Shown here piece by piece: positions 1 through 62,773 of a stretch of DNA of 64,000 nucleotides. The notes below the pieces were generated by a model that did not search any database, was not told where the DNA came from, and saw nothing but the letters and a program-made list of their open reading frames with translations. Positions within the stretch are counted from its first letter, which is position 1. Every line of letters starts with the position of its first letter. Made by a program: the position numbers and the translations under genes. This DNA comes from Candidatus Moranbacteria bacterium GW2011_GWE2_35_2- (GTDB lineage Bacteria > Patescibacteriota > Minisyncoccia > Moranbacterales > UBA9337). The stretch lies in contig LBQD01000002.1 of the NCBI GenBank assembly GCA_000990585.1, positions 184,016 to 248,015 on the forward strand. The letters are read 5' to 3'.

Positions 1-2904
1 AGCGTGATGAAAGATGTGGTGCCGCGATATTGGACGATGCGCGGAAAATATGTCGAGCGAAAATGGGGCTGGGATTGCCATGGTCTTCCAATTGAAAATA
101 TCGTGGAGAAAGAACTTGGTTCAAAAAAGAAAAAAGACATCGAGGAAATGGGCGTGGAGAAATTCAACGAGCTGTGTCGAAGCAAAGTTTTGGAATATGT
201 CGATATTTGGAAAAAAGTGATTTCCCGGCTCGGACGCTGGGCGGATATGGAAAATGCCTACAAAACGATGGATTTGCCGTATATGGAATCGGTTTGGAAC
301 GTTTTCAAACAGCTCTATGACAAGGGTTTGATTTATGAAGGCTACCGCTCAATGCATATTTGCACGCGCTGTGAAACGACTTTATCGCAACAGGAGGTTT
401 CCGAAGGGTATAAGGATATTAAGGATTTGTCGGCGATCGCGAAATTCGAATTAGTGAAACCCTCACCCCTAACCCCTCTCCCGGAGGGAGAGGGGGATAA
501 GGTTTTCGTTTTAGCTTGGACGACGACACCTTGGACATTGATTGGGAATGTGGCGCTGGCAGTAGGAAAGGATATTGATTATGTGGAAATTGGAATTAAG
601 AATCAAGAATCAGGAATTAGAGAAAACTATATTTTAGCCAAAGACAGAATTGCGGATGTGGCGAGAGATAAAGAGTATGAAATTATAAAAGAATTCAAGG
701 GTAGCGAATTAGTCGGTAAAGAATACAAACCGCTATTTGATTATTATCAAAACAAAGGTTTGCAAAACGAAGAGAATGGCTGGAAAATTTATGCCGGAGA
801 TTTTGTGACGACTGATGAGGGAACTGGCGTGGTGCATATCGCGCCGGCATTTGGAGAGGATGATTTGAAATTGGGACAAAAAGAAAAATTGCCGTTTGTG
901 CAACACGTTGGGTTGGATGGCGTGATTAAAAAAGAAGTTGGAGATCCTGAAGCACAGCAATCTGGCTATAGGGCAAGTTTTGCGGGACTTTCAGTCAAGC
1001 CGATGACCGGGGAAAAAGACAGCCATCAAAAAACCGATATCGAAATCATCAAATATTTGGCGCACAAGGGTTTATTGTTTTTTAAGGAAAAATATGAACA
1101 CAGTTATCCGCATTGCTGGAGGTGTGACACGCCGCTAATTAATTACGCGACAAGCTCTTGGTTTGTGGCGGTGGAAAAAGTGAAAGACGAAGCGTTGGAA
1201 TTGGCAAAAGAAATAAATTGGTCGCCATCCCATATGAAAGAAGGACGGTTTGGAAAATGGCTGGAAGGCGCGCGCGATTGGTCGATTTCCCGGCAGAGGT
1301 TTTGGGCGAGTGTGATGCCGATTTGGGTTTGCGATCAATGCGGAGAAGTTAGGGTGTTTGGGGGCGTTGGGGAGTTGGAAGAAATTTCCGGAGAGAAAAT
1401 CACTGACATCCACAAGCATATCGTGGATAAAATCATTTTCAAATGTGAAAAGTGCGCTTCGACAGGCTCAGCGCAAGTAGGGACAATGAAACGGGTGCCG
1501 GATGTTTTGGATACTTGGTTTGACAGTGGCTCGATGCCGTATGCTCAGATGCATTATCCATTTGAAAATGTGGAAAAATTCGAAAAAAGTTTTCCGGCGG
1601 ATTTCATTGCCGAAGGGCAGGATCAGACCCGGGCGTGGTTTTATTATCTTCATATTCTAGGCACGGCGCTCAAAAACAAGCCGGCTTTCAAGAATGTGAT
1701 TGTCAATGGAACTGTTTTAGCGGAAGATGGAAAGAAAATGTCAAAAAGGTTAAGTAATTATCCCGATCCTATGGAGATGTTTGAAAAATACGGCGCGGAC
1801 GCGGTGCGATTCTATTTGATGAGCAGCCCCGTCGTGGCGGCGGAAAATTTGAATTTCAAAGAGGCGGATGTGGCGGACGTGGTTCGTGGGATGATGCGGA
1901 TGCTTTGGAATTCATATTCATTTTTTGTGTTGTATGCAAACATTGACGGCTTTGCGCCGCAAGATACAAGATACAAAATACAAGATACAAGCAGTCTTTT
2001 GGATAAGTGGATTATTTCGGAATTGCATACGCTGATTCGGGAATTCAATTTGCATATGGAAAATTATGAGCTTAACCGGGCGTGCCGTTTGGTGCCTAAA
2101 TTCGTGGACAATCTTTCCAATTGGTATGTGCGCCGATCAAGAAAAAGATTCTGGAAATCGGAAAATGACAATGATAAAAATGAGGCATACGCGACTTTGC
2201 ACTATGTTTTGGTGGAACTTTCCAAAGTAATGGCATCGTTTACACCGTTTATTTCGGAAGAGATTTATAGAAATTTGAAGAGCCCTTACCCCAACCCTCT
2301 CCCAGAGGGAGAGGGGGATTTAGTGTCGGTGCATTTGGCTGATTTTCCGATGGCGGATGAGAAGTTGATTGATGAAAAGTTGAATGAGCAAATGCAAAAA
2401 ACTCGCGAAATTATTACGGAAGCGTTGCAACTTCGCGCCAAAGCGGGAATCAAGGTGAGGCAACCTTTGGGTCAATTTTCAATTTTCAATTTTCAATTTT
2501 CAAACAATGAAAAAGAATTTTTAAATATAATAAAAGAGGAAGTTAATGTGAAAAATGTTGCGATTAGCGGAGAAGAAGAAACGGAAGGGAAATGGGCGGT
2601 TGGCGATGCCGGAGGAGTCAAAGTGTCTTTGAATACGGAAATAACGGATGAGTTGAGGATGGAGGGGCAGGCGCGGGAGGTTGTTCGCTTTATTCAGGAA
2701 ATGCGCAAAGAAGCGGGATATGAAGTTGACAATCGCATCCAAGTGTGCTATGATGGACAGTCGGATGTTTTTGAAAAATTCGGTTCTTTGATAACTAAAG
2801 AAGTGTTGGCAGACAAACTGTCTGCCGAAAAATTGGAAAAAACAGACCTGCAAAAAGAATTCAATCTGGATGGCGAAAAAATCCGGATTGGGATTTGCAG
2901 ATAA
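1..2904 (+). CDS. ileS: isoleucyl-tRNA synthetase, 5' truncated at window edge
   Basis: WDCHGLPIE, WSISRQRFW and KMSKRL (KMSKS-type) motifs; long C-terminal anticodon-binding/Zn region; frame open to base 1. Confidence 0.85.
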   Translation, partial: SVMKDVVPRYWTMRGKYVERKWGWDCHGLPIENIVEKELGSKKKKDIEEMGVEKFNELCRSKVLEYVDIWKKVISRLGRWADMENAYKTMDLPYMESVWNVFKQLYDKGLIYEGYRSMHICTRCETTLSQQEVSEGYKDIKDLSAIAKFELVKPSPLTPLPEGEGDKVFVLAWTTTPWTLIGNVALAVGKDIDYVEIGIKNQESGIRENYILAKDRIADVARDKEYEIIKEFKGSELVGKEYKPLFDYYQNKGLQNEENGWKIYAGDFVTTDEGTGVVHIAPAFGEDDLKLGQKEKLPFVQHVGLDGVIKKEVGDPEAQQSGYRASFAGLSVKPMTGEKDSHQKTDIEIIKYLAHKGLLFFKEKYEHSYPHCWRCDTPLINYATSSWFVAVEKVKDEALELAKEINWSPSHMKEGRFGKWLEGARDWSISRQRFWASVMPIWVCDQCGEVRVFGGVGELEEISGEKITDIHKHIVDKIIFKCEKCASTGSAQVGTMKRVPDVLDTWFDSGSMPYAQMHYPFENVEKFEKSFPADFIAEGQDQTRAWFYYLHILGTALKNKPAFKNVIVNGTVLAEDGKKMSKRLSNYPDPMEMFEKYGADAVRFYLMSSPVVAAENLNFKEADVADVVRGMMRMLWNSYSFFVLYANIDGFAPQDTRYKIQDTSSLLDKWIISELHTLIREFNLHMENYELNRACRLVPKFVDNLSNWYVRRSRKRFWKSENDNDKNEAYATLHYVLVELSKVMASFTPFISEEIYRNLKSPYPNPLPEGEGDLVSVHLADFPMADEKLIDEKLNEQMQKTREIITEALQLRAKAGIKVRQPLGQFSIFNFQFSNNEKEFLNIIKEEVNVKNVAISGEEETEGKWAVGDAGGVKVSLNTEITDELRMEGQAREVVRFIQEMRKEAGYEVDNRIQVCYDGQSDVFEKFGSLITKEVLADKLSAEKLEKTDLQKEFNLDGEKIRIGICR
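458..498 (+). repeat. GC-rich palindromic 38-bp element, copy 1 (in frame inside ileS)
   Basis: AACCCTCACCCCTAACCCCTCTCCCGGAGGGAGAGGGGGAT; stem CCCTCTCCC/GGGAGAGGG; encodes PSPLTPLPEGEGD. Confidence 0.8.
1960..1992 (+). repeat. heptanucleotide tandem array (CAAGATA)x4-5 inside ileS
   Basis: caagatacaagatacaaaatacaagatacaagc, in frame (QDTRYKIQDTS). Confidence 0.8.
2281..2319 (+). repeat. GC-rich palindromic element, copy 2 (in frame inside ileS)
   Basis: AGCCCTTACCCCAACCCTCTCCCAGAGGGAGAGGGGGAT; encodes SPYPNPLPEGEGD. Confidence 0.8.
2472..2503 (+). repeat. heptanucleotide tandem array (TCAATTT)x4 inside ileS
   Basis: tcaattttcaattttcaattttcaattttcaa, in frame (FSIFNFQFSN). Confidence 0.8.
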
Positions 2905-32303: not shown

Positions 32304-32310
32304 TGCTTTA

Positions 32311-50313: not shown

Positions 50314-51321
50314 ATGTTTTTACGAAAAATTGGAATTGATTTAGGAACAGCGAATATTTTGATTTTTATTCCTGGTAAGGGGGTGGTAATCAATGAACCG
50401 TCGGTAGTGGCGGTTTCTTTGGCTGAGAACAGGGTTTTGGCGGTGGGTAATGAAGCTAAAGAAATGCTCGGACGTACTCCGGATACGATTATTGCCAGTC
50501 GTCCACTCAAAGATGGGGCGATCGCGGATTATCGTATTACTGAAGCTATGCTTAAATATTTTATCAATAAAGTAAGTGGAAAATTTCGCTTGTTTCGTCC
50601 GGAGGTGATGATTTCTGTTCCGGCAGGGATTACTTCAACGGAAAAAAGAGCGGTGATTGATGCGGCGGTTAAAGCGGGTGCCAAGGCGGCCTATGTTCTC
50701 AAAGAGCCGATTTTGGCGGCAATTGGGGCGGGAATTCCAATCAATAACGCACAAGGGAATATGATAATCGATATTGGTGGCGGAACATCAGAAGTGGCGG
50801 TAATTTCTTTGGGTGGAGTGGTGGCGGCTCATAGCGCGCGTGTTGGAGGAAATAGATTTGATCAAGCGATTGCTGACTATATCAAACGCAAGCACGGATT
50901 GGCAATCGGAGACCGCACGGCGGAGGATATTAAAATTCAAATTGGCAGTGCTATTGCGCAAGTTAAGGAAGAATATGCAGAAGTAAAAGGGAGGGATTTG
51001 ACTGGTGGACTCCCCAAGATAATTAAAGTTTCTTCCAATGAAATTACCGAAGCATTGCAAGATGAACTTCGCGAGGTGATTAATGCGATTAAAAAAGTCC
51101 TGCAAGAAACTCCCCCGGAATTGGCGGCGGATATTATGGATAAAGGGATGGTTCTTTCAGGAGGAGGAGCGCTATTGCGCAATCTTGATCAACTTATTAC
51201 GAAAACTATTAACGTTCCTTGTTATGTAGCGGATGATGCGCTCCTTTGTGTGGTAAAAGGAACCGGAAAAGCCTTGGAAAATTTAGATTTGTATAAAAAG
51301 ACCTTATTGATGAGCAAATGA
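50314..51321 (+). CDS. mreB: rod shape-determining protein MreB
   Basis: IGIDLGTANI, NEPSVVA, actin-fold phosphate/adenosine motifs; ATG 50314 (track start TTG). Confidence 0.9.
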   Translation: MFLRKIGIDLGTANILIFIPGKGVVINEPSVVAVSLAENRVLAVGNEAKEMLGRTPDTIIASRPLKDGAIADYRITEAMLKYFINKVSGKFRLFRPEVMISVPAGITSTEKRAVIDAAVKAGAKAAYVLKEPILAAIGAGIPINNAQGNMIIDIGGGTSEVAVISLGGVVAAHSARVGGNRFDQAIADYIKRKHGLAIGDRTAEDIKIQIGSAIAQVKEEYAEVKGRDLTGGLPKIIKVSSNEITEALQDELREVINAIKKVLQETPPELAADIMDKGMVLSGGGALLRNLDQLITKTINVPCYVADDALLCVVKGTGKALENLDLYKKTLLMSK

Positions 51322-52463
51322 AAATAGGTATTGATGGTTCGCGGGCGTTTTTGAAAAATCGCACGGGAATCGAAGAATATTCTTATCAAGTTATCAAACA
51401 CCTGAGGGACAAATTAGAAAGTCATCAGGTGATTTTGTATTTGAGGAAGAATCAAGAATTGAGAATCAAGAATCAGGGCTTTGAATTGCCGGAAAATTGG
51501 AAAGTGAAAGTGATAAGTTTTCCAAGGTTTTGGACTCAGATCGGATTGTCCTTGGAAATGCTTTTGCGTCCGATAGATGTGCTTTTTGTGCCGGCGCACA
51601 CAGTGCCGATCATTCATCCCAGAAAAACAATCGTGACAATTCATGGATTGGAATACGAATTTTGTCCCAAAGCTTATTCATTTTGGGAAAAAATTTATAT
51701 GCGCTGTTCGATAAAATTTTCTTGCAAGTGGGCGAGTAGGATTATTTCTGTTTCGGAAAATACCAGGAAAGATTTGATGAGATTGTATAATGCGCCGGAA
51801 AATAAGATTGAAGTTATTTATGAGGGATACAATTTTAATTTCCAATTTCCAATTTCCAATTTTCAATCAATTTCCAATGATAAAATTTTAAATTCAAAAA
51901 ATAAGTATCTACTGTTTATTGGCAGGCTGGAAAAACGGAAGAATACTCTGGGAATCATTAAGGCATTTGAAATTTTAAAAGAAAAATATCAAATTCCGCA
52001 CAAACTGATTTTGGCGGGAAAAGGCGGGTATGGAGAAGAGGAAATTAAAGATAAAATTGAAAAATCAAAATATAAAGAGGATATTATTTTACCGGGTTTT
52101 ATTGCCGAAGAAGAAAAATGGGAATTATTGAAAAATGCAGATGTTTTTTTGTTTCCGACTTTTTATGAGGGTTTTGGAATTCCGATTTTAGAAGCGCAAA
52201 GCGTCGGCACTCCTGTGGTGGCTGGAAACAATTCCTCAATTCCGGAAGTGGTGTCAGTAAAACAGGGAAGTATTGAATTGTCAGATCAAAAGTCAGCTTT
52301 GCTTGTGGATGTTAATAGCGCGGAAGAAATCGCCGAAGCAACTTATGAGCTTATTAACGATAATGATTTGAGAGAAAAAATAATTAAAATGGGATTGGAA
52401 AACGTCAAAAGATTTTCTTGGGAAAAATGCGCATCTTCTATTACTAAATTATTGAATAAATAG
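51318..52463 (+). CDS. glycosyltransferase family 4 (GT-B)
   Basis: C-terminal EGFGIPILEAQSVGTPVV EX7E region. Confidence 0.8.
   Translation: MKIGIDGSRAFLKNRTGIEEYSYQVIKHLRDKLESHQVILYLRKNQELRIKNQGFELPENWKVKVISFPRFWTQIGLSLEMLLRPIDVLFVPAHTVPIIHPRKTIVTIHGLEYEFCPKAYSFWEKIYMRCSIKFSCKWASRIISVSENTRKDLMRLYNAPENKIEVIYEGYNFNFQFPISNFQSISNDKILNSKNKYLLFIGRLEKRKNTLGIIKAFEILKEKYQIPHKLILAGKGGYGEEEIKDKIEKSKYKEDIILPGFIAEEEKWELLKNADVFLFPTFYEGFGIPILEAQSVGTPVVAGNNSSIPEVVSVKQGSIELSDQKSALLVDVNSAEEIAEATYELINDNDLREKIIKMGLENVKRFSWEKCASSITKLLNK
51447..51474 (+). repeat. heptanucleotide tandem array (AAGAATC)x4 inside glycosyltransferase gene
   Basis: aagaatcaagaattgagaatcaagaatcagg, in frame (KNQELRIKNQG). Confidence 0.8.
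51837..51880 (+). repeat. heptanucleotide tandem array (AATTTCC)x3-4 inside glycosyltransferase gene
   Basis: aatttccaatttccaatttccaattttcaatcaatttccaat, in frame (NFQFPISNFQSISN). Confidence 0.8.
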
Positions 52464-53365: not shown

Positions 53366-53540
53366 TTTCGCCTAACGTATCGGAGTATGCGAAGTTCGCT
53401 TTTTGGGTTTATTGATTATTATTTGAATTATCTGGTTACTATTTTAGATGATTTTTGCTTAAATTACCACCAAACAGAGAAAAGCGAATTTGGGAAAAAT
53501 TCGAGCCGAGCCTTTTTCCGCATACTCGGTGTTAGGCGAG
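53366..53540 (+). repeat. attC-like structured repeat R1
   Basis: left CGCCTAACGTATCGGAGTATGCGAAGTTCGC, right GCGAATTTGGG...CCGCATACTCGGTGTTAGGCGAG; inner stems pair within the copy. Confidence 0.7.
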
Positions 53541-53618
53541 GGTGAGCGGAACGGAGTGGAGCGAAAGCGCAGCGTCCCAGTAGCGTTTTCTTTTAAATTA
53601 TTTTTTGCGGTCGCGGGC

Positions 53619-53647
53619 TTGACAGATTATTCCTTATCTGCTATACT
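53619..53647 (+). promoter_or_regulatory. consensus-like sigma-70 promoter P1 inside cassette W
   Basis: TTGACA -17- TGcTATACT; near-identical module to P2 at 54648. Confidence 0.55.
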
Positions 53648-53742
53648 AAACGGTCAATAGTTGAGAAATCGTTTTTTAACTCAAAAGAGTGGTTTCTTGC
53701 TATTGCGAGGACTTACTCTATTTGGAGGAGGGAGGAGAAAAA

Positions 53743-53892
53743 ATGAAGAAAACAATAAAGATTTTGGCCGCAATAAATGCTGTATTAACTGTAGTAAATG
53801 CCGCAGTTAATATAAAGCCACTTACTGTGGCAGCTGCGGTGTTTTTCATTTTAATCACAATCATCATTTTTTCGATACCATCGAAGAAGTGA
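53743..53892 (+). CDS. small hydrophobic peptide (49 aa)
   Basis: GGAGGAGGGAGGAG RBS, ATG 53743, single TM peptide MKKTIKILAAINAVLTVVNAAV...; strong terminator follows. Confidence 0.35.
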   Translation: MKKTIKILAAINAVLTVVNAAVNIKPLTVAAAVFFILITIIIFSIPSKK

Positions 53893-53911
53893 TGATCCAC
53901 AGTTCCAATTC

Positions 53912-53945
53912 AAGGCGTTAGCTGTACAGCTAACGCCTTTTTTTC
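53912..53945 (+). terminator. rho-independent terminator
   Basis: AGGCGTTAGCTG-ta-CAGCTAACGCCT 12-bp perfect stem followed by TTTTTTT. Confidence 0.7.
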
Positions 53946-53972
53946 ATGAGCAAAAAATAATTTGAAAGAAAA

Positions 53973-54060
53973 TGTCGCCTAACGTTTACGCATCATCTGA
54001 AGTGCGAAGCATTTGAGTGAAGCGTAGCGAAACCGGATATGGGCTGTTGGGCGATGTAAG
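53973..54060 (+). repeat. attC-like repeat R2 (short, degenerate)
   Basis: left TGTCGCCTAACGTTTACGCATCATCTGAAG, right CTGTTGGGCGATGTAAGG. Confidence 0.55.
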
Positions 54061-54070
54061 GTTTGGCAAT

Positions 54071-54334
54071 TTATTTTTGTTTATTAAAATTTTTAACTGG
54101 AAAAAATAGTATCAAGCAGAAAGCTACCAAGCTATCAATATACGGAATTAACGGACAAATATTTTTTGAATAATAAATTTTTTTTTCACAATCTAAATCG
54201 CCGACTACACATGCGAGTTTCAATGTGCAATTACTTCCATATAAAAATTTATCGAAAATAACAAAAACCAGGACGGCGATAATTAAAGCGATGATAAATT
54301 TAATTTTAGTTGGTTTAAAAATTTTAATAAACAT
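54071..54334 (-). CDS. small membrane protein, hypothetical (cassette gene)
   Basis: 87 aa, two TM helices, Cys-containing loop; sits between R2 and R3. Confidence 0.3.
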   Translation of the reverse strand: MFIKIFKPTKIKFIIALIIAVLVFVIFDKFLYGSNCTLKLACVVGDLDCEKKIYYSKNICPLIPYIDSLVAFCLILFFPVKNFNKQK

Positions 54335-54373
54335 ATTTTTTTTTACTTATTAAAAATAAATTGCCAGACCTTA

Positions 54374-54594
54374 TTTCGCCTAACGTTTAAGAATATCTGA
54401 AGTCCTGCACTTTGGTTTTTATACACAAAACCTTGATATTCCTACTTTATTTGTTAATCTCATTATACTCTAATTTACAGCAAAACGGAAAAGTGCAGGA
54501 TTTGGGAGAGAAAAATTTGCCCTCCTTTTAGTTTTAACTGTGGCAAATTTTTTGAACCAGATATTCTTTGTTATCGGATGTAGCAAAAAACAAA
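54374..54594 (+). repeat. attC-like structured repeat R3
   Basis: TTTCGCCTAACGTTTAAGAATATCTGAAGTCCTGCAC...GTGCAGGATTTGGGAGAGAAAAATTTGCCCTCC...GGCAAATTTTTTGAACCAGATATTCTTTGTTATCGGATGTAGC. Confidence 0.75.
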
Positions 54595-54647
54595 CATTCC
54601 TTATTGTATTTATTTTTTTTCAAGCCCTTTTAAAATTTTTTGTGGTC

Positions 54648-54676
54648 TTGACAGGCTGGCTTTTTTCTGCTATACT
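54648..54676 (+). promoter_or_regulatory. consensus-like sigma-70 promoter P2 inside cassette X
   Basis: TTGACA -17- TGcTATACT, then AAAAGGAGG RBS before ATG 54736. Confidence 0.55.
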
Positions 54677-54735
54677 AACTTGATACTAATTTTGGTGTCT
54701 GTACATTACAAAACTCGAGAAAAAGGAGGTTTACA

Positions 54736-55296
54736 ATGGAACTCAAGAGTATATTGTCGGTAATTTCTGGCGTGTTGTTCGTTGCGGGATTCGTTCCCTA
54801 CATTATCGCAATACTGCGTGGTGAAACGAAGCCTGCAAAGGCCTCGTGGATAATCTGGGCAAGCCTTGACTATATTGTCTTGGCTGGCATGATTGCTGAA
54901 AAAACAGTCAACGGACAAATCCTTGGGGCTGTAATCGGAGCAACAATCGTCATCGGTCTGGCCATGAAATACGGAGCTTCGGGTTGGACAAGAACGGATA
55001 AATTTTGTCTCATCGGTGCAATGCTTGGCATTTCATTATGGATGATTTTTAAAAATCCAACCTTCGGCATCATGACAAGCTGCATTGTCGCATTTATCGG
55101 TTCTTTTCCCACGTTTATATCTGCGTGGAAAGACCCCAGTAAAGAAAACAGGCTTGCGTGGACTATTTTCTGGATTTCCTGCGTTTGCGCAATGATAGCC
55201 ATTCCGCGCATGACCTTTGCTGATGCAGCACAGCCCACAACCTTTTTTCTAATTGAAAGCGTCATGATGTATATTTTGTACTTTCGCGCTCGCTAA
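54736..55296 (+). CDS. polytopic membrane protein, hypothetical, GC-rich (foreign-looking)
   Basis: 186 aa, ~6 TM; strong promoter and RBS; GC ~48%. Confidence 0.5.
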   Translation: MELKSILSVISGVLFVAGFVPYIIAILRGETKPAKASWIIWASLDYIVLAGMIAEKTVNGQILGAVIGATIVIGLAMKYGASGWTRTDKFCLIGAMLGISLWMIFKNPTFGIMTSCIVAFIGSFPTFISAWKDPSKENRLAWTIFWISCVCAMIAIPRMTFADAAQPTTFFLIESVMMYILYFRAR

Positions 55297-55411
55297 ACTC
55301 GCAAGCGACATTATTGTAAGGTCATCAGTTGGATACTGGTGGCCTTTTTCTTTTTCTAAAATTTTAAAAGGGCTTGAAAAAAAATATTAATAAAAGGTTT
55401 GTTTTTTGCTA

Positions 55412-55440
55412 TTTCCGATAACGTAAGTGATATCTGAAGT
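55412..55440 (+). repeat. attC-like repeat R4, left arm (interrupted by cassette Y)
   Basis: TTTCCGATAACGTAAGTGATATCTGAAGT pairs with right arm at 55877. Confidence 0.55.
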
Positions 55441-55495
55441 TTTTATTTTCTTTCCTTATTATTTTTAAAAAAGGGAAAATAAAAATTTGGGTGGA

Positions 55496-55874
55496 GTGAA
55501 AGAAAAATATTATTTAATATCGATTAGAACAGCATCAACTTCTTCATCAGAAACAAACGCTCTGGTAACTTGCTCACATTGAATTTCATCAAAAATTTTC
55601 ACCACCACATATGTTCCAATGGTTTTTCCTTCGCCTAAAGTATATTTGGTTATGACACATCTGCCATAAGCATTCCAGTTTTCATCTCGCAGATCCATTG
55701 GAACTTTGATTTGATAAAGCCTGTGCCCGTTTTTACTAAAATTATACTTTTTGCCAATCTCGAGCGGATTAGGAATATCCTTTTTGTCCATTCTGAGACA
55801 GGCTTGCAATTCAAATGGGTTGCCCATAAATTTTTTGATATTAACGGAGATATTAAATAATATTTTTCTTTCAC
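55496..55874 (+). mobile_element. TIR-bounded mini-cassette Y carrying a 105-aa gene, inserted inside repeat R4
   Basis: 26-bp TIRs GTGAAAGAAAAATATTATTTAATATC / GAGATATTAAATAATATTTTTCTTTCAC; left TIR overlaps stop codon of the gene. Confidence 0.55.
55510..55827 (-). CDS. hypothetical protein (cassette gene)
   Basis: 105 aa soluble protein, no motif recognised. Confidence 0.4.
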   Translation of the reverse strand: MGNPFELQACLRMDKKDIPNPLEIGKKYNFSKNGHRLYQIKVPMDLRDENWNAYGRCVITKYTLGEGKTIGTYVVVKIFDEIQCEQVTRAFVSDEEVDAVLIDIK

Positions 55875-55876
55875 GT

Positions 55877-55907
55877 AACCAGATATTACTTGTTATCGGA
55901 TGTGGCG
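55877..55907 (+). repeat. attC-like repeat R4, right arm
   Basis: AACCAGATATTACTTGTTATCGGATGTGGCG. Confidence 0.55.
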
Positions 55908-55922
55908 AATACTTGGAGCTAT

Positions 55923-56042
55923 TTCCGATAACGTTTCAGTATATCTGATGTTTGCCAAAATTCCTTTAAAAATCAATAAGTTTTTGGCAAATATGGGTCG
56001 AGCGAGGGCACGAGCGAGCCAGATATACTGTGTTGTGCGAGG
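55923..56042 (+). repeat. attC-like repeat R4b (short complete copy)
   Basis: TTTCCGATAACGTTTCAGTATATCTGATG...TTTGCCAAAA/TTTTGGCAAA...AGCCAGATATACTGTGTTGTGCGAGG. Confidence 0.65.
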
Positions 56043-56175
56043 GTTATTTTCTGGAGTGATAACGGAAGAAAATCAAGTGCAACGACCCCGAAGCGTATTT
56101 TTCAATATTTTTTCATTCCTTATTATTTTGTTGAAGAATTTTATCATTATTTGGAATTTTTATTTTTTCGTTTTT

Positions 56176-56212
56176 CTTTTTCCAAGAGGGGTTAGGGGTG
56201 AATTGGAAAAAG
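56176..56212. repeat. hairpin with G-rich loop GAGGGGTTAGGGGTGAA (half copy of the ileS GC-rich element), at 3' end of IIG gene
   Basis: 10-bp stem CTTTTTCCAA/TTGGAAAAAG around loop. Confidence 0.5.
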
Positions 56213-56221
56213 AAAAACACC

Positions 56222-58642
56222 TTATTTTAAATATTTCTTTAACTCATCAAAACCATAACTATTTTCTACAATATTTTTTATATACTCCAAATCTAACTCC
56301 TTGTCGTTTTTAAAAGGCATTGGAATATTCATTTTTTTAAGTTTTGTTAAATTTAATTTTCTGTAATAATTATATCTCCATTGATGATTTTTTATCATTA
56401 CTGAAATATAAAATAATAAATATGGATTATATTCATTTTTTAATGTTAGAACTGCATTATCTCCGCTAGTTATAAAATCATCAAATTGAAAAAATGTTTC
56501 TCCAACACTTCCGTTTAATGCCACAGTTAGACATTTGCCTTTAAAATTTGGATCTTCATCGTAATAACCGGATACTCCATTATTTAGCGATGAAGTAGTA
56601 ACATATGGAATATTACCTATTTCTAAAGAATTTTGAGGCAAGGCTGTTTTTTTGTTTATAATACATAAACCATTTTCTTGCTCTTCTTTTATATAAATTA
56701 CTGGTATAAATTTTATTTTAGGCTGTTTCCCTATATGTTTACTTCTCCATTTTTTAGTTTTTATTAAATATGTTAATGATTCTTTTATAGCATTGTCTAA
56801 TTGTTCTTCGACTTCTTTAATATCAGGTATTTTATTATCTATATAAACCTCGGGGGTAAGTTCTATGTTTACATCATTATTATCAAGCTTACAAATTTTC
56901 TTAAATTCTGGAGCGTCTTCAAATTTTAGATTTTGATTAACTAAAAATGCTTTCAATTCTTCTTTTATTTCTTTTATTTGATTTCTTTCTCTTTCTTCAT
57001 CAAAAATTCTTTTTCCTTTCTTTTTTCTATATCCGTCCGTAACACCTCTTGCAAAATATACATTTTGACTATTAAAATTATGAGGAACACCCTTTTTTAT
57101 AAATACTCCTATTGTTCCAACACTAACAGGATAAAATAGATCTTCTGGCAAAGTAACAACCGATAATAAAGTATTATTTTCTAGTAAATCTTTTCTCCAA
57201 GATTTTCCACCTCCACCTTCAACCATTACAGAGATTGGAACAATGGCAAAAAGAATACCACCGTCTTGCATTTGAGATAATGCATGATCTATAAAATGTC
57301 TTTCTTTTTCATCTCCTTTTTTAAGAGCAAAAGGAGGGTTCATTAATACTTTAGTGATAACTGGATTTTTAGTTAATTCATTACCTATTCTTTTTACAAA
57401 TTCACCTGTTTGATTTCCTTTTTTATTAGTTAATTCTATATTTTTTTGAAAACAATTTCCCTCACTCATATTATTTCTTCCATCTCCCCTAAAAATCATA
57501 TTTACAAGTGCAAGTGCTACGACTTCATCGTCCTGTTCAATTCCAAAAAGATTATAATTTTTAAATTTTTCTATTTGTTTATCGCTTGAATTTTTTTTGA
57601 TATGATCAAAAGAAGAAACTAAAAAACCACCTGTACCACAAGTCGGATCAAGAACATAATCATTGTGATTTACATCTAAAACTTCAACTGCAAATTCTGT
57701 TATATGTCTAGGAGTTAAAACGATACCTATCTCTTTTGCACCATTTCCATATTTCAAAAATTTTTCATAAAATTCTCCTAAAATATCTTTACCAGAAGCC
57801 ATTGCATTCTTAATATCTAAAGCCTCTAATTCTTTAATTGTTTCCTTGATTGCGTCCCTATATTTTATGTGATTCTCTCTGCTTGGTGGTAATTCTAATT
57901 TTAGAAAATTAAAAAAACTTTCTTTTTCTACTTCTCTTAGTTTTTTATTGATTAATGAATTAACACTTTCAACTAATGTTGTTGTATCATTTTCTTTTAG
58001 ATTGATAAAAGAATTATCTGCCAAAGAAAGTACAAGTCCTGCAATGAATCTAGCTCTTTTATTTTTATTTATCCCTGCATTATGTAAAATTTCATTTATT
58101 TCTAATGCTGAATCTATATATTTTTCTTCTGGCAAATCTGGAAACTCCGACCATTCTGGCTTATCGTGTTCTAAAATATATTGAGCTTGTTTTTTTGAAA
58201 GTAAGATATTTTTTATCTTTCCTTTTTCCAAAAGCACATTTTCCCATTTCCCATTTTTTAAATATTGATTTTTGACTATATAACCATCTGTATCATTTCC
58301 AGCTACTCCAGAAATTAAAACACATTTAATTTTTTTACTTTTGTTAATCTTTTTCGCATATTGATTTTTTGCCTCATCAAGAGCTTGTTCTATCATATCT
58401 CTATCTCTCTTGCTTTCAATTGCCCAAAATTCTTCACTATTAAGTTTTACCACAGCTTCTGGCATATCTCTATCCAGAAGATTTTTTAGTTCTTTATGGT
58501 ACAAAACTTCATTTTGCTTATAAACTTCACCATCAGAAACCCTAGCAGGATTTTTTACAATCCAACCTAATTTATCAAGCTCTTCCTTGATATAAGTATA
58601 AGCATCAACCTCACTATTTTTTGGTTTAGATGAATGAGTCAT
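56222..58642 (-). CDS. Type IIG-like restriction-modification fusion protein (N6-adenine MTase + TRD, putative N-terminal nuclease)
   Basis: MTase motif I DPTCGTGGFL, motif IV NPPF, HsdM-like GEFYEKFL...TPRHI; C-terminal HsdS-type TRD; N-terminal PE...IESK possible PD-ExK; very AT-rich codon usage. Confidence 0.55.
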   Translation of the reverse strand: MTHSSKPKNSEVDAYTYIKEELDKLGWIVKNPARVSDGEVYKQNEVLYHKELKNLLDRDMPEAVVKLNSEEFWAIESKRDRDMIEQALDEAKNQYAKKINKSKKIKCVLISGVAGNDTDGYIVKNQYLKNGKWENVLLEKGKIKNILLSKKQAQYILEHDKPEWSEFPDLPEEKYIDSALEINEILHNAGINKNKRARFIAGLVLSLADNSFINLKENDTTTLVESVNSLINKKLREVEKESFFNFLKLELPPSRENHIKYRDAIKETIKELEALDIKNAMASGKDILGEFYEKFLKYGNGAKEIGIVLTPRHITEFAVEVLDVNHNDYVLDPTCGTGGFLVSSFDHIKKNSSDKQIEKFKNYNLFGIEQDDEVVALALVNMIFRGDGRNNMSEGNCFQKNIELTNKKGNQTGEFVKRIGNELTKNPVITKVLMNPPFALKKGDEKERHFIDHALSQMQDGGILFAIVPISVMVEGGGGKSWRKDLLENNTLLSVVTLPEDLFYPVSVGTIGVFIKKGVPHNFNSQNVYFARGVTDGYRKKKGKRIFDEERERNQIKEIKEELKAFLVNQNLKFEDAPEFKKICKLDNNDVNIELTPEVYIDNKIPDIKEVEEQLDNAIKESLTYLIKTKKWRSKHIGKQPKIKFIPVIYIKEEQENGLCIINKKTALPQNSLEIGNIPYVTTSSLNNGVSGYYDEDPNFKGKCLTVALNGSVGETFFQFDDFITSGDNAVLTLKNEYNPYLLFYISVMIKNHQWRYNYYRKLNLTKLKKMNIPMPFKNDKELDLEYIKNIVENSYGFDELKKYLK

Positions 58643-58864
58643 AAGTTTAGATTATTATAAATATAAATTTATTATAGCATGTAGCAACATATTAATAAAA
58701 AAAATTAAATTTTCAATTATGGTTTTATTAAATAATCATTTTTTGCGGAGGAACGGAGCAAAAAATATCCGCTTATCCCCCTCATAAAAATAAAAAAATA
58801 AAAATTCCATTCCTTTTTAAATTCTTCAACAAAATTTTCATTTGAGAAAAAATATTGAAAAATA

Positions 58865-59064
58865 TGTCGCACAACGTATCGGCATCATCTGAAGTTGCGC
58901 CCATATTTATTGGCTAAAACTTCAACTTTCTATCTACTTTAATTATATCACTAAATTTTGTCCTATCACAGCGCAATTTGGGAGAGAAAATTTTTCAAAC
59001 CTTGGCGTTAAAAGATATAAAGGTGAAAAATTTCCGAACCAGATATGCCGTGTTAGCTGATGTA
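58865..59064 (+). repeat. attC-like structured repeat R5
   Basis: TGTCGCACAACGTATCGGCATCATCTGAAGTTGCGCCC...CAGCGCAATTTGGGAGAGAAAA...GAACCAGATATGCCGTGTTAGCTGATGTA. Confidence 0.75.
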
Positions 59065-59128
59065 TTTTTTTTGTCTTCTATTTTATTGGTACAAATTTTG
59101 TTTATTCTAAAAGAAAATTTGATTTTTG

Positions 59129-59177
59129 TTTTGGATTTTGGGCAGAGGGGTCAGGGGTGAATGCCCAAAATCCAAAA
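59129..59177. repeat. hairpin with G-rich loop GAGGGGTCAGGGGTGAA, at 3' end of 59185..59664
   Basis: 16-bp perfect stem TTTTGGATTTTGGGCA/TGCCCAAAATCCAAAA. Confidence 0.55.
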
Positions 59178-59184
59178 CTCCTTT

Positions 59185-59664
59185 TTATTTTTCCTCTAGA
59201 TCTTTACCAGATATCCATGCTTCATACAATATTTCATCACGAGTTTTATAATGGCTTTCTTCAATTTTAACATCTTCCATTCTTTTCATATAAGCTGCGT
59301 ACAAAGGAGACTCTTTTTTCATATATTCAATGTATGCATCATCAATTCCGTTGTAAGTTGGGTCTGCCATCATTTTTTGTACACGATATTCATCCTTTCC
59401 CTTTTCTAGCTTTTTCCACTCTTGGGCTAATTCTTCATCACTACGATTATCACCAGCCAACCTTGCTCTGTTGATGTAAATATCCGTTCTTTCTTTCTCT
59501 AACTTCTCCATCTCTACAATATCCTGCTCCTCAGTTTGCTCATAATCTCTTGTGCCTGGATTAAAATCTCTTTCCATAGCTTCTAACCCTTCTATGTGGG
59601 CAGTTTCAGCATCTTTACTGCCTGGCTCTGGAGTAAAACTCCCAAAATTTTCTTTGTTTCCCAT
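59185..59664 (-). CDS. acidic hypothetical protein (cassette gene)
   Basis: 159 aa, E/D/K-rich, no motif recognised. Confidence 0.35.
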   Translation of the reverse strand: MGNKENFGSFTPEPGSKDAETAHIEGLEAMERDFNPGTRDYEQTEEQDIVEMEKLEKERTDIYINRARLAGDNRSDEELAQEWKKLEKGKDEYRVQKMMADPTYNGIDDAYIEYMKKESPLYAAYMKRMEDVKIEESHYKTRDEILYEAWISGKDLEEK

Positions 59665-59679
59665 ATTTTTTTACTTAAA

Positions 59680-60285
59680 TTAATTAATATTTATTACTTT
59701 TATTATTTCATCAAAACTAGAAACTATTTTGAACGGTTTTCCTTTTTCGAGTCTGTCTTTTTTGTGAAAGCCAAAATCGACTGCAATTGTTTTGACTCCG
59801 ACTTTATTCCCTTCTATAATATCTCCCAGAGTATCAGTCACAAAAACACAATCTTCAGCTTTGAATTTGTATTTTTCAAATAAGTATTTGAATTTTTCAA
59901 CTTTAGATTGATGTGTTTCAGCTCCCAATATTTCCTTAAAAATGTGAACGAATTTATTGTTTTGAAAATAAATATTCAACGCCTCCTCTTGATTGGATGA
60001 AATAATAAACAAAAGATATCTCAGTGATAGTTTTTCTAAATTACTTTTAACACTCGCGTCTATTTTAAGATGCTCGAACGCTTTATTTTGCAACTTATAA
60101 AATTGCTCGCTATCCGCCTTTTCCTTTTCCTCATCAACCACTACTTTTTCAAAGATATTTCCATTGAAAAAATCCCTATGTTGTTCTCGAGTTAGATTCC
60201 CGCCAGAAATCTTAAGGTTTATTTGATAGGCCATTTCATATGTATCATGAATTACACCATCAAAATCAAAAATAATTGCTTTCAT
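59680..60285 (-). CDS. HAD superfamily hydrolase (subfamily IA-like)
   Basis: motif I IIFDFDGVI, motif III K, motif IV VFVTDTLGDIIEG. Confidence 0.7.
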   Translation of the reverse strand: MKAIIFDFDGVIHDTYEMAYQINLKISGGNLTREQHRDFFNGNIFEKVVVDEEKEKADSEQFYKLQNKAFEHLKIDASVKSNLEKLSLRYLLFIISSNQEEALNIYFQNNKFVHIFKEILGAETHQSKVEKFKYLFEKYKFKAEDCVFVTDTLGDIIEGNKVGVKTIAVDFGFHKKDRLEKGKPFKIVSSFDEIIKVININ

Positions 60286-60429
60286 AGGTTATTTGCTATA
60301 AATAGTTTTTTTATGCCTCTTTGTAGGCAGAAAAAACACCTTTTACCCCTCTATAAATAAATTAAAAATCAAATTTTCTTCGTGGTTCAACGCACAAATC
60401 TCAAAATTATCACCAAAGACAAAAAAATA

Positions 60430-60547
60430 TTTCAGCTAACGTTTGCGTGTATCTGAAGTTGCGCCCGTTATTTTTTTGGCTAAACTTCAATATTCACTTG
60501 TCTGAATTATATCACCGAACCCCAATTATTAGAAGGCGCAATTTGGG
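60430..60547 (+). repeat. attC-like repeat R6, left part (interrupted by cassette Z)
   Basis: TTTCAGCTAACGTTTGCGTGTATCTGAAGTTGCGCCC...GGCGCAATTTGGG. Confidence 0.7.
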
Positions 60548-60610
60548 CGAAGCCAGAGAATGAATTTATAATTTTTTTCCTTATAAAAAAGGCTCTTTTT
60601 GATTTTTTCG

Positions 60611-60639
60611 TTGACAGAACGGTTTTTTTCGTTTAAGGT
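60611..60639 (+). promoter_or_regulatory. putative sigma-70 promoter P3 inside cassette Z
   Basis: TTGACA -17- TAAGGT, then AAGGAGG RBS before ATG 60684. Confidence 0.45.
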
Positions 60640-60683
60640 AACCTCAGTACAAAATCCATAAACCCAGAAAAGGAGGAAATAAA

Positions 60684-61160
60684 ATGAAGCTCTTTAATAT
60701 CTTCAAGAAAAAAATCGTGGCTGGTTGCGGACACGAAACGCTGAAAAAGGACAAGGTGACGGCTTTCGGTGCAAGTTGCGAAACCAAAATCCCGATCGCT
60801 GACGGCAAAACCGACTATTGTCATCGTTGTCTCGAGAAAATGGCAATTAGGTGCGCCTGGTGCGGTGAAGTCATTTTCATCGGCGACCCGATTACTCTCT
60901 ATTCTCCGAAAGACAAAGACCGTAAGATGCCTGATTATGCTGTACCTCACAACAAAGAACACAATTCCTACGTGGGATGCTTCCGTTGGAACTGTGCCGA
61001 GACAGGCGCGGATAGAGCTGGATTTTGGTATCCGCCAGGCAAGGTTTACCGTGTTCCGACGCCGATTGAGATGTGCATGAAGAACATGCAAAACGGCGGT
61101 GATGGCGTAATTTGTGTCGGCGATCTCAGTGATCGCAAGGAGGCAGTGAGAGGCTTGTAA
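60684..61160 (+). CDS. Cys-rich hypothetical protein, GC-rich (foreign-looking)
   Basis: 158 aa with >=12 Cys (CxH..C, CHRC, CAWC, CFRWNC...); ~50% GC; overlapping ORFs on other frames are shadows. Confidence 0.45.
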   Translation: MKLFNIFKKKIVAGCGHETLKKDKVTAFGASCETKIPIADGKTDYCHRCLEKMAIRCAWCGEVIFIGDPITLYSPKDKDRKMPDYAVPHNKEHNSYVGCFRWNCAETGADRAGFWYPPGKVYRVPTPIEMCMKNMQNGGDGVICVGDLSDRKEAVRGL

Positions 61161-61215
61161 AAAATCAAAAAGAGCCTTTCAAAAATAAGAAAAAATTATA
61201 AATTCATTCTCTGGC

Positions 61216-61247
61216 GTAGCCAGATACACGCTGTTAGGCGATGTAAA
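61216..61247 (+). repeat. attC-like repeat R6, right arm
   Basis: GTAGCCAGATACACGCTGTTAGGCGATGTAAA. Confidence 0.65.
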
Positions 61248-61333
61248 TTTTAGCTAAACGCTATATTACATCGCCTTTTTTATTGGTAGATGTAAAAGTA
61301 AAAACAATAAATATTTTTATTAAGCTAAAATTT

Positions 61334-61531
61334 ATTTCGCCTAACGTATCGGCATCATCTGAAGTTGCGCCCGTAGTTATTAGCTAAAACTTCAAATATC
61401 TACCTGTTTTTGATTATATCACTAAATTCTAACAAACGTCAGCGCAATTTGGGAGAGAAAAATTTGCCCTCCTTTTAGTTTTAACTGAGGCAAATTTTTT
61501 GAACCAGATATGCCGTGTTGTGCGATGTAAA
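61334..61531 (+). repeat. attC-like structured repeat R7
   Basis: TTTCGCCTAACGTATCGGCATCATCTGAAGTTGCGCCC...CAGCGCAATTTGGGAGAGAAAAATTTGCCCTCC...GGCAAATTTTTTGAACCAGATATGCCGTGTTGTGCGATGTAAA. Confidence 0.8.
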
Positions 61532-61536
61532 ATTTT

Positions 61537-61794
61537 TTATCGTTTGCTATGGGTTAACTTTAATATTAACAAAGACAGTGTGAGAGACGCTTCAATTGTA
61601 GTAAAAATCATTATGGGACGACTATGCAATCCAATGCCATATATTATAAATAGAATCAGCCCGATTAAAAGCAAGGAATTCCACAACAAAGAAATATCTT
61701 CTGTTGATTTAGTTGTCCATGATTTAATCACCTGAGGCACAAGGGCTGATGCGATGATTGCCGAACCAGCAAAACCTACGATTTCAATATCCAT
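61537..61794 (-). CDS. SemiSWEET/PQ-loop family small transporter (putative)
   Basis: 85 aa, 3 TM, ALVPQVIKSWTTKSTEDISLLW PQ-loop motif. Confidence 0.5.
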   Translation of the reverse strand: MDIEIVGFAGSAIIASALVPQVIKSWTTKSTEDISLLWNSLLLIGLILFIIYGIGLHSRPIMIFTTIEASLTLSLLILKLTHSKR

Positions 61795-61915
61795 AATGAT
61801 TTTTACGTTAGTTAATAAAAAATTTTATTTCGCACAACTGGTTTTATCCGTACCTGCCAATAATTTGGCTTGGATTAAGGTTTGTGGTATGATTTTGATG
61901 TAATCATACTGTCTT

Positions 61916-62773
61916 ATGAATGAATATTATCATAAAAGAAAAAATGCGACAATGACAGAAATGGACTCATTAAACAGATTGGAACGAGAATTGAAAATTC
62001 GTGGATTTAGTTTAAAAACCGTCAAGTCTTATTTGATGTATAATAGGCTATTTTTGGAATTTATAAAGAAAAGTCCTAAAGCGATTACAAATGATGACAT
62101 TCGTCAATATTTATTATCTCTGAAAAATAAAAATTGCGCTAATTCCACTTTAAACGTGGCGCTTAATGCTTTGAAGTTTTATTATCGAGGAATACTTAAA
62201 AGAAAATTCTTTTTTGATATAAAAAGCGCTAAAAAAACTAACTATTTGCCGACGGTTCTTAGTAAGGAAGAAGTTAAGAGAATGTTAGAGATGACCACAA
62301 ATCCAAAACATAATTTTTTCATAGCCTTGATGTATTCGTCCGGTTTGCGTGTTAGCGAGGCAGTCAAAATAAGGATGTGTGATTTTGATTTAGATAGAAA
62401 AATAATCACAGTGCGGCAAGGAAAGGGTGCAAAAGATCGCTGCACGCTTCTGTCGGAAAAACTTATACCGACATTAAAAAAGCAACTAACACTTAAAAAA
62501 TCAAATGATTATTTATTTACTGGGGCAGGTGGAAACGGACATCTAACTGTTGAAAGTGCCGAAAAAATAATTAGAAAGGCAGTTGAGTCAGCCAATATCG
62601 TTAAAAAAGTTTCTTGTCACAGTTTGCGACATTCTTTTGCCACTCATCTTCTGGAATCTGGTACGAGTATTCGGTATATTCAAGAACTTTTAGGGCATGC
62701 TAGACTGGAAACAACACAAATTTACACTAAAGTTGCCAATAATAATTTACAAAATATCCAAAGTCCGTTATGA
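61916..62773 (+). CDS. tyrosine site-specific recombinase, XerC/XerD-like
   Basis: GLRVSEAVKIRMCD (Arg I), VRQGKGAKDR, HSLRHSFATHL (His/Arg II), LGHARLETTQIYTKV (catalytic Tyr); no IntI-specific insertion. Confidence 0.8.
   Translation: MNEYYHKRKNATMTEMDSLNRLERELKIRGFSLKTVKSYLMYNRLFLEFIKKSPKAITNDDIRQYLLSLKNKNCANSTLNVALNALKFYYRGILKRKFFFDIKSAKKTNYLPTVLSKEEVKRMLEMTTNPKHNFFIALMYSSGLRVSEAVKIRMCDFDLDRKIITVRQGKGAKDRCTLLSEKLIPTLKKQLTLKKSNDYLFTGAGGNGHLTVESAEKIIRKAVESANIVKKVSCHSLRHSFATHLLESGTSIRYIQELLGHARLETTQIYTKVANNNLQNIQSPL

Follow-up and report, generated by a model that had tools for sequence, protein, structure and literature searches.

A single-chain restriction–modification enzyme of BcgI-like descent with one target recognition domain, carried in a cassette array of a Candidatus Moranbacteria genome

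Introduction

The stretch of 64,000 nucleotides (nt) considered here (the window; positions 184,016 to 248,015 of contig LBQD01000002.1) belongs to Candidatus Moranbacteria bacterium GW2011_GWE2_35_2- and carries on its minus strand an open reading frame (ORF) with an ATG start, located at 56222..58642 in the ORF list of the window, which encodes a protein of 806 residues with the domain matches of a restriction–modification (R–M) enzyme. The locus raises the questions of whether this single chain is a complete enzyme, from what it descends, how a protein with only one target recognition domain (TRD) would recognise and cut DNA, and in what genetic setting it is carried.

Three primary forms of Type IIB enzymes have been catalogued, represented by BcgI, AloI and HaeIV (PMC4081073). 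In those made of a restriction–modification (RM) subunit and a separate specificity (S) subunit, the lone C-terminal helix of each RM subunit and the conserved regions CR1 and CR2 of the S subunit build a four-helix bundle in a complex of composition (RM)2S (PMC11997821), corresponding to the A2B stoichiometry of BcgI (PMC3592470). HaeIV consists of only one kind of chain, bearing one specificity domain; two copies of it form a homodimer that recognises the symmetric bipartite site GAY N5 RTC and cuts on both sides of it (PMC4081073; PMC3874165 Table 4); its organisation is catalogued as 2R~gammaM~[GAY] (PMC3874165 Table 4).

The gene has a guanine-plus-cytosine (GC) content of 0.275 against a mean of 0.358 ± 0.027 for the window, the lowest of 308 segments of 2421 nt. 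Its homologs in five other genomes are likewise richer in AT than their flanks (GC of 0.28–0.32 against 0.30–0.42), and AT-richness above that of the flanks is usual for R–M genes that move horizontally. An identical protein is present in the databases under the name 'N-6 DNA methylase', assigned to the same organism, and is found on 15 contigs; since the protein recurs with the same neighbours in independent assemblies, it is not an assembly artefact. Both the exact position of the 806-residue ORF and its extreme AT-richness had been reported by a first-pass annotation, made by a model from the sequence of the window, and both are confirmed.

Domain organisation of the enzyme

The central part of the protein is a gamma-class N6-adenine DNA methyltransferase (MTase) of the HsdM type, spanning residues 276–610 (56813..57817, minus strand). 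The Pfam family N6_Mtase (PF02384) covers residues 285–602 with an expectation value (E) of 3e-36, and the matches among Protein Data Bank (PDB) sequences are HsdM subunits, those of StySJI (E 5e-22) and EcoKI (E 5e-17). Motif I, DPTCGTGGF (residues 332–340; 57623..57649, minus strand), responsible for S-adenosylmethionine (AdoMet) binding, precedes the catalytic motif IV, NPPF (residues 435–438; 57329..57340, minus strand). Both motifs are invariant in the family, with D332, P333, C335, G336, T337, G339 and F340 of motif I unchanged throughout the alignment of close homologs, and the order and invariance of the two motifs therefore identify a gamma-class enzyme that would produce N6-methyladenine (m6A) in DNA.

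The MTase is preceded by a helical connector, equivalent to the N-terminal helical domain of HsdM, at residues 149–275 (57818..58198, minus strand). It is all-helical in the AlphaFold (AF2) model over residues 150–273, with a predicted local distance difference test score (pLDDT) of about 90, and it is covered by the PADLOC Type IIG profile PDLC03608, which is collinear with the protein from residue 119. The best PADLOC models for the whole protein are 'Type IIG restriction enzyme-methyltransferase' and 'Type II specificity subunit' ('Specificity_II'). The C-terminal part, residues 611–806 and the stop (56222..56812, minus strand), consists of the RM tail helix, a linker, one HsdS-type TRD and a short conserved helix, as judged by its match to an S subunit and by Pfam Methylase_S (PF01420), which matches in one stretch only (residues 658–793, E 7e-13).

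The N-terminal 148 residues (58199..58642, minus strand) form a predicted PD-(D/E)XK nuclease domain of the HsdR_N type. The AF2 model, with a pLDDT of 90 for residues 1–275 and 83 for residues 1–148, gives this domain an alpha-beta-beta-beta-alpha-beta topology, in which P61-E62 at the 'PD' position of the motif (58457..58462, minus strand) start the strand at residues 63–66 and E76-S77-K78, the '(D/E)xK' element (58409..58417, minus strand), end the strand at residues 71–78. P61, E62, E76 and K78 do not vary among 33 close homologs, fused or unfused, and E76 and K78 are still invariant in an alignment of 31 sequences that extends down to 28% identity (range 28–70%), with PE alternating with PD in the distant members (KPDFVIK...VIEIK, RPDFLIF...IIENK).

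Structural and profile comparisons point to the same assignment. In a Foldseek search of the PDB with the isolated domain, the highest template modelling (TM) score was that of the RM subunit of BsaXI (8w2q_B; TMq 0.51, root-mean-square deviation of 4.4 Å over 138 columns, probability 0.89), with an E-value within the noise of the top match, and the other top matches are mostly PD-(D/E)XK enzymes, including bunyaviral cap-snatching endonucleases and Hjc. When PDB sequences were searched at full length with phmmer and with profiles, HsdM proteins alone came back and there was no sequence-level match to BsaXI; PADLOC reported nothing relevant for the isolated N-terminal 275 residues. The nuclease homology emerged only with a domain-only profile made from diverse relatives, which among the PDB sequences matched a Type I HsdR subunit in its nuclease domain (3h1t_A, E 4.6e-5), aligning 'ywviEaK' over 'iavvEAK' with the ExK in register. 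Pfam HSDR_N is matched by 19 of the 31 family members (best E 2e-6).

The catalytic residues of BsaXI, established by mutagenesis, are E73, D90, E105 and K107, with the spacing E-x16-D-x14-E-x-K (PMC11997821), and E53 of BcgI is part of a PD...EXK motif (PMC3592470). In the window protein, E45, E62, E76 and K78 follow the near-identical spacing E-x16-E-x13-E-x-K and are the probable catalytic residues. Several observations weigh against this assignment. The window protein scores only 16.5 bits against HSDR_N, under the cut-off of 25.1; no Foldseek match of the domain in the PDB reaches an E-value of 1e-3 (best 3e-3 to 7e-2); and E45 was assigned as the first acidic residue from spacing only, its place being taken by Q in several distant members. 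With both the HSDR_N and the Foldseek scores below threshold, the nuclease call therefore rests on convergent weak-to-moderate evidence together with conservation of the motif. On the alignments and the model taken together, the putative PE-x13-ExK motif is a genuine PD-(D/E)XK nuclease motif.

The domain defines a small family, with 211 clusters at 50% identity among 1.8 billion representatives. In a search seeded with the domain itself, it is N-terminal in all full-length relatives recovered, which are about 620–660 or 760–870 residues long, the sizes of an RM subunit or of an RM-TRD fusion.

Judged by its predicted parts, namely nuclease, gamma-class MTase and one TRD with conserved catalytic motifs, the protein is a complete single-chain R–M enzyme of 806 residues, with the organisation R~gammaM~TRD. 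The first-pass annotation had read it as a Type IIG-like fusion of nuclease, MTase and TRD, with a gamma-class N6-adenine MTase bearing DPTCGTGGFL and NPPF and a single C-terminal HsdS-type TRD, and the domain matches and conserved motifs uphold each of these points, provided that Type IIG is understood broadly. Its candidate nuclease motif, PE-x13-IESK, holds at the very residues predicted, given the invariance, the PE/PD exchange, the AF2 model, the BsaXI fold match and the HsdR profile match, and the absence of nuclease-fold similarity that it had named as a reason to abandon the idea did not materialise, similarity to BsaXI and HsdR of weak-to-moderate strength having been found. Two details have to be revised: the nuclease domain comprises about 148 and not about 270 residues, and the 'HsdM-like TPR region' is not TPR and corresponds to the helical connector of HsdM-type MTases at residues ~150–275.

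Descent from a two-gene system

Homologs of the protein occur in two forms, one of about 800–820 residues with a TRD and one of about 630 residues without. An unfused relative of 638 residues, P0013, is 97%, 99% and 93% identical to the window protein over residues 1–148, 149–275 and 276–612, respectively, and its gene is followed by an overlapping gene for a 318-residue Methylase_S protein, a two-TRD S subunit. The C-terminus of the fused protein is 60% identical to residues 170–318 of this S subunit (TRD2 and the tail), the last 29 residues being identical, and its match to TRD1 is weak (29%). The same relation is visible in the DNA: the gene is collinear with the RM+S operon over nt 1–1838 at 92.7% identity, after which about 445 nt of the operon, made up of the last part of RM, the beginning of S and TRD1, are absent and similarity returns in TRD2. 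At the level of sequence, these comparisons show that the gene descends from a BcgI-like RM gene and a two-TRD S gene in which TRD1 was lost and RM became joined in frame to the TRD2 half; the product is a BcgI-like RM subunit of about 636 residues followed by half an S subunit of about 150 residues.

The protein is also a mosaic: the relatives nearest to its RM body are unfused (93–99% identity), and those nearest to its TRD are other fused proteins (83–89%), the RM bodies of which are only 72–92% identical to that of the window protein. This type of TRD is common to most fused homologs, and four have unrelated TRDs (23–50%), a variation that is the shuffling of specificity modules to be expected of HsdS-type systems. 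The fused form is kept down to 57% identity. In unrelated genomes, four of the fused homologs stand alone: their neighbours are housekeeping or defence genes, none of them an S, M or R partner, and no S gene is found near the gene of the window.

The surroundings of individual fused homologs were also recorded. In two unrelated genomes the gene is followed by an ORF of 30–32 residues that overlaps its stop by 4 nt (8400–8492 in locus L007 and 7400–7498 in locus L010); no such ORF follows the gene of the window, where the hairpin module described below stands in its place. Another fused homolog, P0006 (locus L008), is located between inovirus-like genes (Zot and a replication protein; 1–4806) and a GmrSD/HNH Type IV restriction gene (7481–8731), a setting that is a defence or prophage island and not a cassette array.

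Mode of action

HaeIV, from Haemophilus aegyptius, resembles the window protein in combining a nuclease, a gamma-class MTase and one specificity domain in one chain without partner genes. The likeness is one of domain organisation, and the homodimer, symmetric site and double-sided cutting that are known for HaeIV are proposed here by analogy. The window protein keeps the RM tail helix and one conserved helix, the 29-residue C-terminal segment (100% identity), and because both are retained, two chains would be able to dimerise through their tail helices and conserved helices, four helices in total. Such a dimer would recreate the (RM)2S stoichiometry of BcgI and BsaXI, with two identical TRDs in inverted orientation, and, working in the manner of HaeIV, would recognise a symmetric bipartite site and cut on both sides of it. 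Without a superfamily 2 (SF2) translocase, cleavage would occur at fixed positions near the site and not after translocation. On our analysis a HaeIV-like homodimer with a symmetric site appears to be the most likely mechanism, with a probability of about 0.6. The presence of the gene alone in one cassette, with no need of a partner gene, fits a mobile one-gene defence unit.

Dimerisation is not forced by this organisation, and it counts against the model that single-TRD Type IIG enzymes such as MmeI and the Type ISP enzymes can act as monomers. A monomeric Type IIG/IIL mode, similar to that of MmeI or of the MTase-TRD module of Type ISP enzymes, is the most serious alternative, although we consider it doubtful. 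The enzyme would then read a short, asymmetric and continuous site through its single TRD, methylate one strand only and make its cut to one side at a constant distance, for which two sites in trans would probably be needed. An R~gammaM~[one TRD] chain with neither a partner MTase nor an S gene agrees with such a mode, and Loenen et al. (PMC3874165) include '1-2R~gammaM~[X]' among the organisations of MmeI-type enzymes. Against it, the RM body is 93–99% identical to one that has a two-TRD S subunit as its partner, the two helices of the (RM)2S bundle, at the RM tail and at the C-terminus, are retained, the latter unchanged, methylation of a single strand with no MTase at its side is known mainly in the MmeI family, and no MmeI-family domain is found above threshold.

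The last point bears on the classification proposed in the first-pass annotation, which had seen the architecture of MmeI-family Type IIG/IIL enzymes in a protein about 100 residues shorter. The MmeI family does share the order of nuclease, gamma-class MTase and one C-terminal TRD, and it too is a one-gene system. It is, however, built from other domain families, the MTase of the window protein being HsdM-type, its TRD belonging to PF01420, its nuclease being of the HsdR_N/BsaXI type and its relatives having the BcgI layout. Membership of the MmeI family or of Type IIL was rejected, with PF20473 (MmeI_Mtase) scoring 15.5 against a cut-off of 27 bits and no match in Pfam to the MmeI_N, helical spacer, TRD or C-terminal domains of MmeI; one distant family member touches MmeI_N with an E-value of 0.06. 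The difference in length is not a meaningful comparison, because the protein is a BcgI-like RM subunit with half an S subunit.

It is improbable that the protein is an orphan or regulatory DNA MTase in which the nuclease domain is a non-cutting remnant, with an epigenetic role or a protective one against a related restriction enzyme. The database name mentions only an N-6 DNA methylase, the nuclease domain scanned alone falls under the curated thresholds, and, as Type IIG enzymes also methylate, an enzyme with an MTase-only phenotype would look similar in silico. This reading has to contend with the behaviour of the nuclease domain, the motif of which is invariant in fused and unfused forms and undergoes only the conservative PE/PD exchange at greater distance. 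The domain is 97% identical to that of P0013, where it was named the best-conserved part of the pair, and it is kept in every full-length relative recovered by the domain-seeded search (about 600–870 residues).

Most improbable of all is an incomplete system, a deletion derivative that would need a separate half-S or RM+S partner to form a hetero-oligomer on an asymmetric bipartite site: the clear origin from a two-TRD system by loss of TRD1 would suit it, and Type I systems provide examples of related half-S proteins that form mixed oligomers, but no S or RM gene adjoins the gene here or in four other genomes, no other PF01420 or PF02384 match occurs among the scanned ORFs of the 64 kb visible, and the fused form is widespread and conserved to 57% identity, which argues that it functions as it stands.

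Comparison with known systems

The organisation of the enzyme is one of the three catalogued Type IIB forms, and its relations to the other known systems can be set out domain by domain. BcgI has the same N-terminal PD...EXK nuclease, HsdM-like gamma-class MTase and C-terminal tail helix, and the nearest relatives of the window protein have the same two-gene layout (638 and 318 residues, against 637 and 341 residues for the subunits of BcgI). In contrast, BcgI has a separate two-TRD S subunit (TRD1-CR1-TRD2-CR2), of which the window protein has only the TRD2 half, fused to RM; this comparison is one of layout and sizes. BsaXI (cryo-electron microscopy structures 8w2p and 8w2q) has the nuclease fold with the top TM score and the four-residue catalytic pattern at near-identical spacing, and differs in its RM subunit of 915 residues, which has a 'knob' and a 'paddle' and a non-EcoKI-like MTase (PMC11997821).

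AloI, TstI and CjeI (R~gammaM~TRD1~TRD2, about 1250 residues) are, like the window protein, single-chain RM-S fusions from a BcgI-like ancestor (PMC3874165), but have two TRDs and asymmetric bipartite sites, whereas the window protein has one TRD and is about 450 residues shorter. All three of its modules are homologous to those of Type I R–M systems (HsdR/HsdM/HsdS, for example EcoKI), namely HsdR_N, HsdM and the HsdS TRD, and it differs from these in lacking the SF2 translocase/helicase part of HsdR. Membership of Type I was rejected, with no helicase domain in Pfam, NCBIfam or PADLOC and with residues 149–275 forming a helical connector that leads straight into HsdM. The kind of protein is already known: the enzyme is an uncharacterised member of a catalogued single-chain type and is, as an enzyme, ordinary.

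The cassette and its array

The gene is located in an integron-like array of about nine cassettes (~53370–61840) between two glycosyltransferase family 4 (GT4) genes (51318–52463 and 62770–63918). The GC content of the cassettes ranges from 0.25 to 0.49, and most of their ORFs, that of the R–M gene included, are on the minus strand, divergent from a recombinase gene at the array end. On the 3' side of the R–M gene, an attC-like site at 55926..56037 reads CGATAAC-GTTT-CAGTATATCTG ... CAGATATACTG-T-GTTGTGC on the plus strand and folds as single-stranded DNA with z-scores of -3.7 and -4.3; on its 5' side, a second site at 58866..59059 reads GCACAAC-GTAT-CGGCAT[C]ATCTG ... CAGATATGCCG-T-GTTAGCT, with L boxes that pair except for one bulged base. 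GTTGTGC at 56031–56037 is the exact complement of GCACAAC at 58866–58872, which is the relation that the ends of a single cassette should show. A single ORF is therefore bounded, as in a gene cassette, by attC-like imperfect palindromes (RYYYAAC ... GTTRRRY) with complementary R'/R'' remnants, and the earlier proposal of a single cassette between attC-like repeats is borne out.

The gene is further bracketed by a 79-nt inverted repeat, the left arm of which (56096..56169, minus strand) is also the conserved sequence that follows the hairpin described below, and the right arm of which (58786..58864) abuts the attC core GCACAAC; the arms are 73% complementary overall and 92% over a 24-nt core. 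Every ORF of the array is bracketed in this way by long inverted repeats of 24–79 nt that start right at the R'/R'' cores of its own cassette, so that the attC stem of a circularised cassette would reach far past the R boxes.

The gene at the array end (61916..62773, plus strand) encodes a tyrosine recombinase of 285 residues (Pfam PF00589 and PF13495) and overlaps the downstream GT4 gene by 4 nt. The protein scores above the cut-off of the NCBIfam XerA/integron-integrase model (234 against 220 bits) and below that of the integron integrase model TIGR02249 (229.8 against 265 bits), which it matches in two stretches. The IntI-specific insert is probably missing, because the recombinase is short and TIGR02249 is matched in two stretches. 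Homologs of the recombinase (39–55% identity) adjoin arrays of hairpins and attC-like sites at five other loci, always divergent from the cassette ORFs; they are encoded in 5 of 64 loci with the hairpin, against none of 56 control loci.

The polarity of the attC-like sites was read against two models, the attC site of aadA1 and a published description of classical sites. According to the latter (PMC3053210), the extrahelical bases of classical attC lie on the R''-L'' arm beside the ORF, which places them in the 3' half of the bottom (antisense) strand. Here, on the sense strand, the ORF-proximal arm has a 1-nt spacer and the ORF-distal arm has 3–4 nt and an occasional bulged G, and these extra bases are on the distal arm both in this array and in all 22 of the related sites found elsewhere, that is, on the arm opposite to the canonical one. 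Whether the ORFs or the recombinase gene are taken as reference, the attC polarity looks inverted, possibly through another choice of strand by a recombinase apparently without the IntI-specific insert.

Other features of the array concern promoters and empty cassettes. Two 35-nt segments on the plus strand (53615–53649 and 54644–54678), 74% identical to each other, contain near-consensus sigma-70 promoters (TTGACA-17-TATACT) and precede plus-strand cassette ORFs for a 49-residue membrane peptide (~53744–53893) and a 186-residue membrane protein (54736–55296); the cassettes that run against the majority orientation are those that bring their own promoter. Around the R–M gene, a sigma-70 promoter scan gave counts no better than shuffles and a scan for intrinsic terminators found none. 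Apparently empty cassettes occur at 55893–55932 (repeat I18) and 61233–61345, where an R' core is followed within 35–110 nt by a complementary R'' core with no ORF between.

The conserved-loop hairpin

Two nt past the stop of the R–M gene is a hairpin (56170..56219, minus strand; z -4.7) with a perfect stem of 17 bp and a 17-nt loop that reads UUCACCCCUAACCCCUC on the gene strand. The 159-residue gene of the next cassette is followed by another hairpin (59128–59179, z -6.4), which has the same loop on a stem of unrelated sequence. The two belong to a family in which the 17-nt loop, C-rich and reading TTCACCCCTRACCCCTC on the gene strand, is invariant and the stem occurs in a small number of discrete types. 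An exact scan for the loop in 185,579 species genomes gave 126 matches, of which 68, the two here included, are in the loop of such a hairpin; the raw count of matches is about that expected by chance (~140) and was set aside, only the hairpin context and controls being used. The carriers are mostly metagenome-assembled genomes (MAGs) of the candidate phyla radiation (CPR), and also include Omnitrophota, Desulfobacteraceae, Gammaproteobacteria, Bdellovibrionales, WOR-3, Cloacimonadota and, among archaea, ANME-1 and Methanosarcinales MAGs.

On the sense strand, unrelated coding sequences enter a common junction, (A)ATAAGG(A/T)G, in which TAA is the stop, followed by the hairpin and then by a conserved sequence specific to the stem type; the sequence at 56096–56169 of the window recurs after the same type of hairpin in seven MAGs. 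With a search that used a loosened core, strict pairing of the L boxes and controls, an attC-like palindrome was found 63–137 nt downstream of the hairpin in 22 of 56 cases and upstream in none of 61 (controls, 2 of 56 and 1 of 55), and attC-like sites are 16-fold commoner in hairpin loci than in control loci.

The hairpin at the 3' end of the gene, which had been listed with the R–M gene in the first-pass annotation, is real, but it is not a feature of that gene: it is common to many unrelated cassettes and absent from the R–M homologs outside arrays, and is therefore part of the cassette framework. The window protein ends in ...KKYLK and its homologs in ...KKYL, so it is the junction that contributes the additional codon as well as the stop. 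There is no T-tract on either strand of the hairpin, which is thus not a canonical terminator, and no Rfam family matches at the hairpin or at the attC sites. A third copy of the loop, with one mismatch, is present at 462–478 (minus strand) inside the ORF 4..2904; it is not in the same hairpin, and adjoins a GGGAGAGGG/CCCTCTCCC palindrome; the fold there is no better than shuffles (z -1.2).

Tentatively, the enzyme may be cargo of an undescribed, integron-like class of cassettes with the order ORF, TAA, invariant-loop hairpin, spacer and polarity-inverted attC, served by the 285-residue XerA/IntI-like recombinase and possibly shared among CPR and other uncultivated lineages, archaea perhaps among them. 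R–M systems are known as integron gene cassettes, for example XbaI, and R–M systems are enriched among cassettes (PMC10661359). The window array resembles these in carrying a defence gene as one cassette between attC sites, and differs from them in its CPR host, its 285-residue recombinase, the opposite polarity of bulge and spacer in attC, and the conserved-loop hairpin at the end of each ORF. A literature search on integrons in CPR/Patescibacteria found nothing specific.

A second candidate R–M locus in the window

A second R–M candidate, unrelated to the cassette enzyme, is located outside the array at 31260–33345 (minus strand). It consists of a C5-cytosine MTase gene (32311–33345; PF00145, E 3e-77) directly upstream of a 347-residue ORF (31260–32303), which has no Pfam or NCBIfam match and is likely to encode a Type II restriction endonuclease. 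A gene for an IrrE/M78 peptidase is found at 29712–30383.

Conclusions

The public name 'N-6 DNA methylase' understates the protein, and the annotation can be corrected to that of a complete R–M enzyme. The gene provides a clean natural case, close at the nucleotide level, of a BcgI-like RM with a two-TRD S subunit turning HaeIV-like by the loss of one TRD, with a C-terminal specificity module that is seen to have been swapped between lineages. If cutting on both sides is true of it, this compact, TRD-variable family could supply new specificities for reagents of the 2b-RAD (restriction-site-associated DNA) type.

The larger potential value is in the cassette framework around the gene, which is more unusual than the enzyme. 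If the reading as a new class of cassettes is true, the one-TRD fusion would be the BcgI-like form that fits a single cassette, and the precise junction of ORF and hairpin, with a stop supplied by the module and one added lysine, would hint at how cassettes are made. For the biology of the CPR, the locus is an instance of a bacterium with a minimal genome in which a defence gene travels in cassette form.

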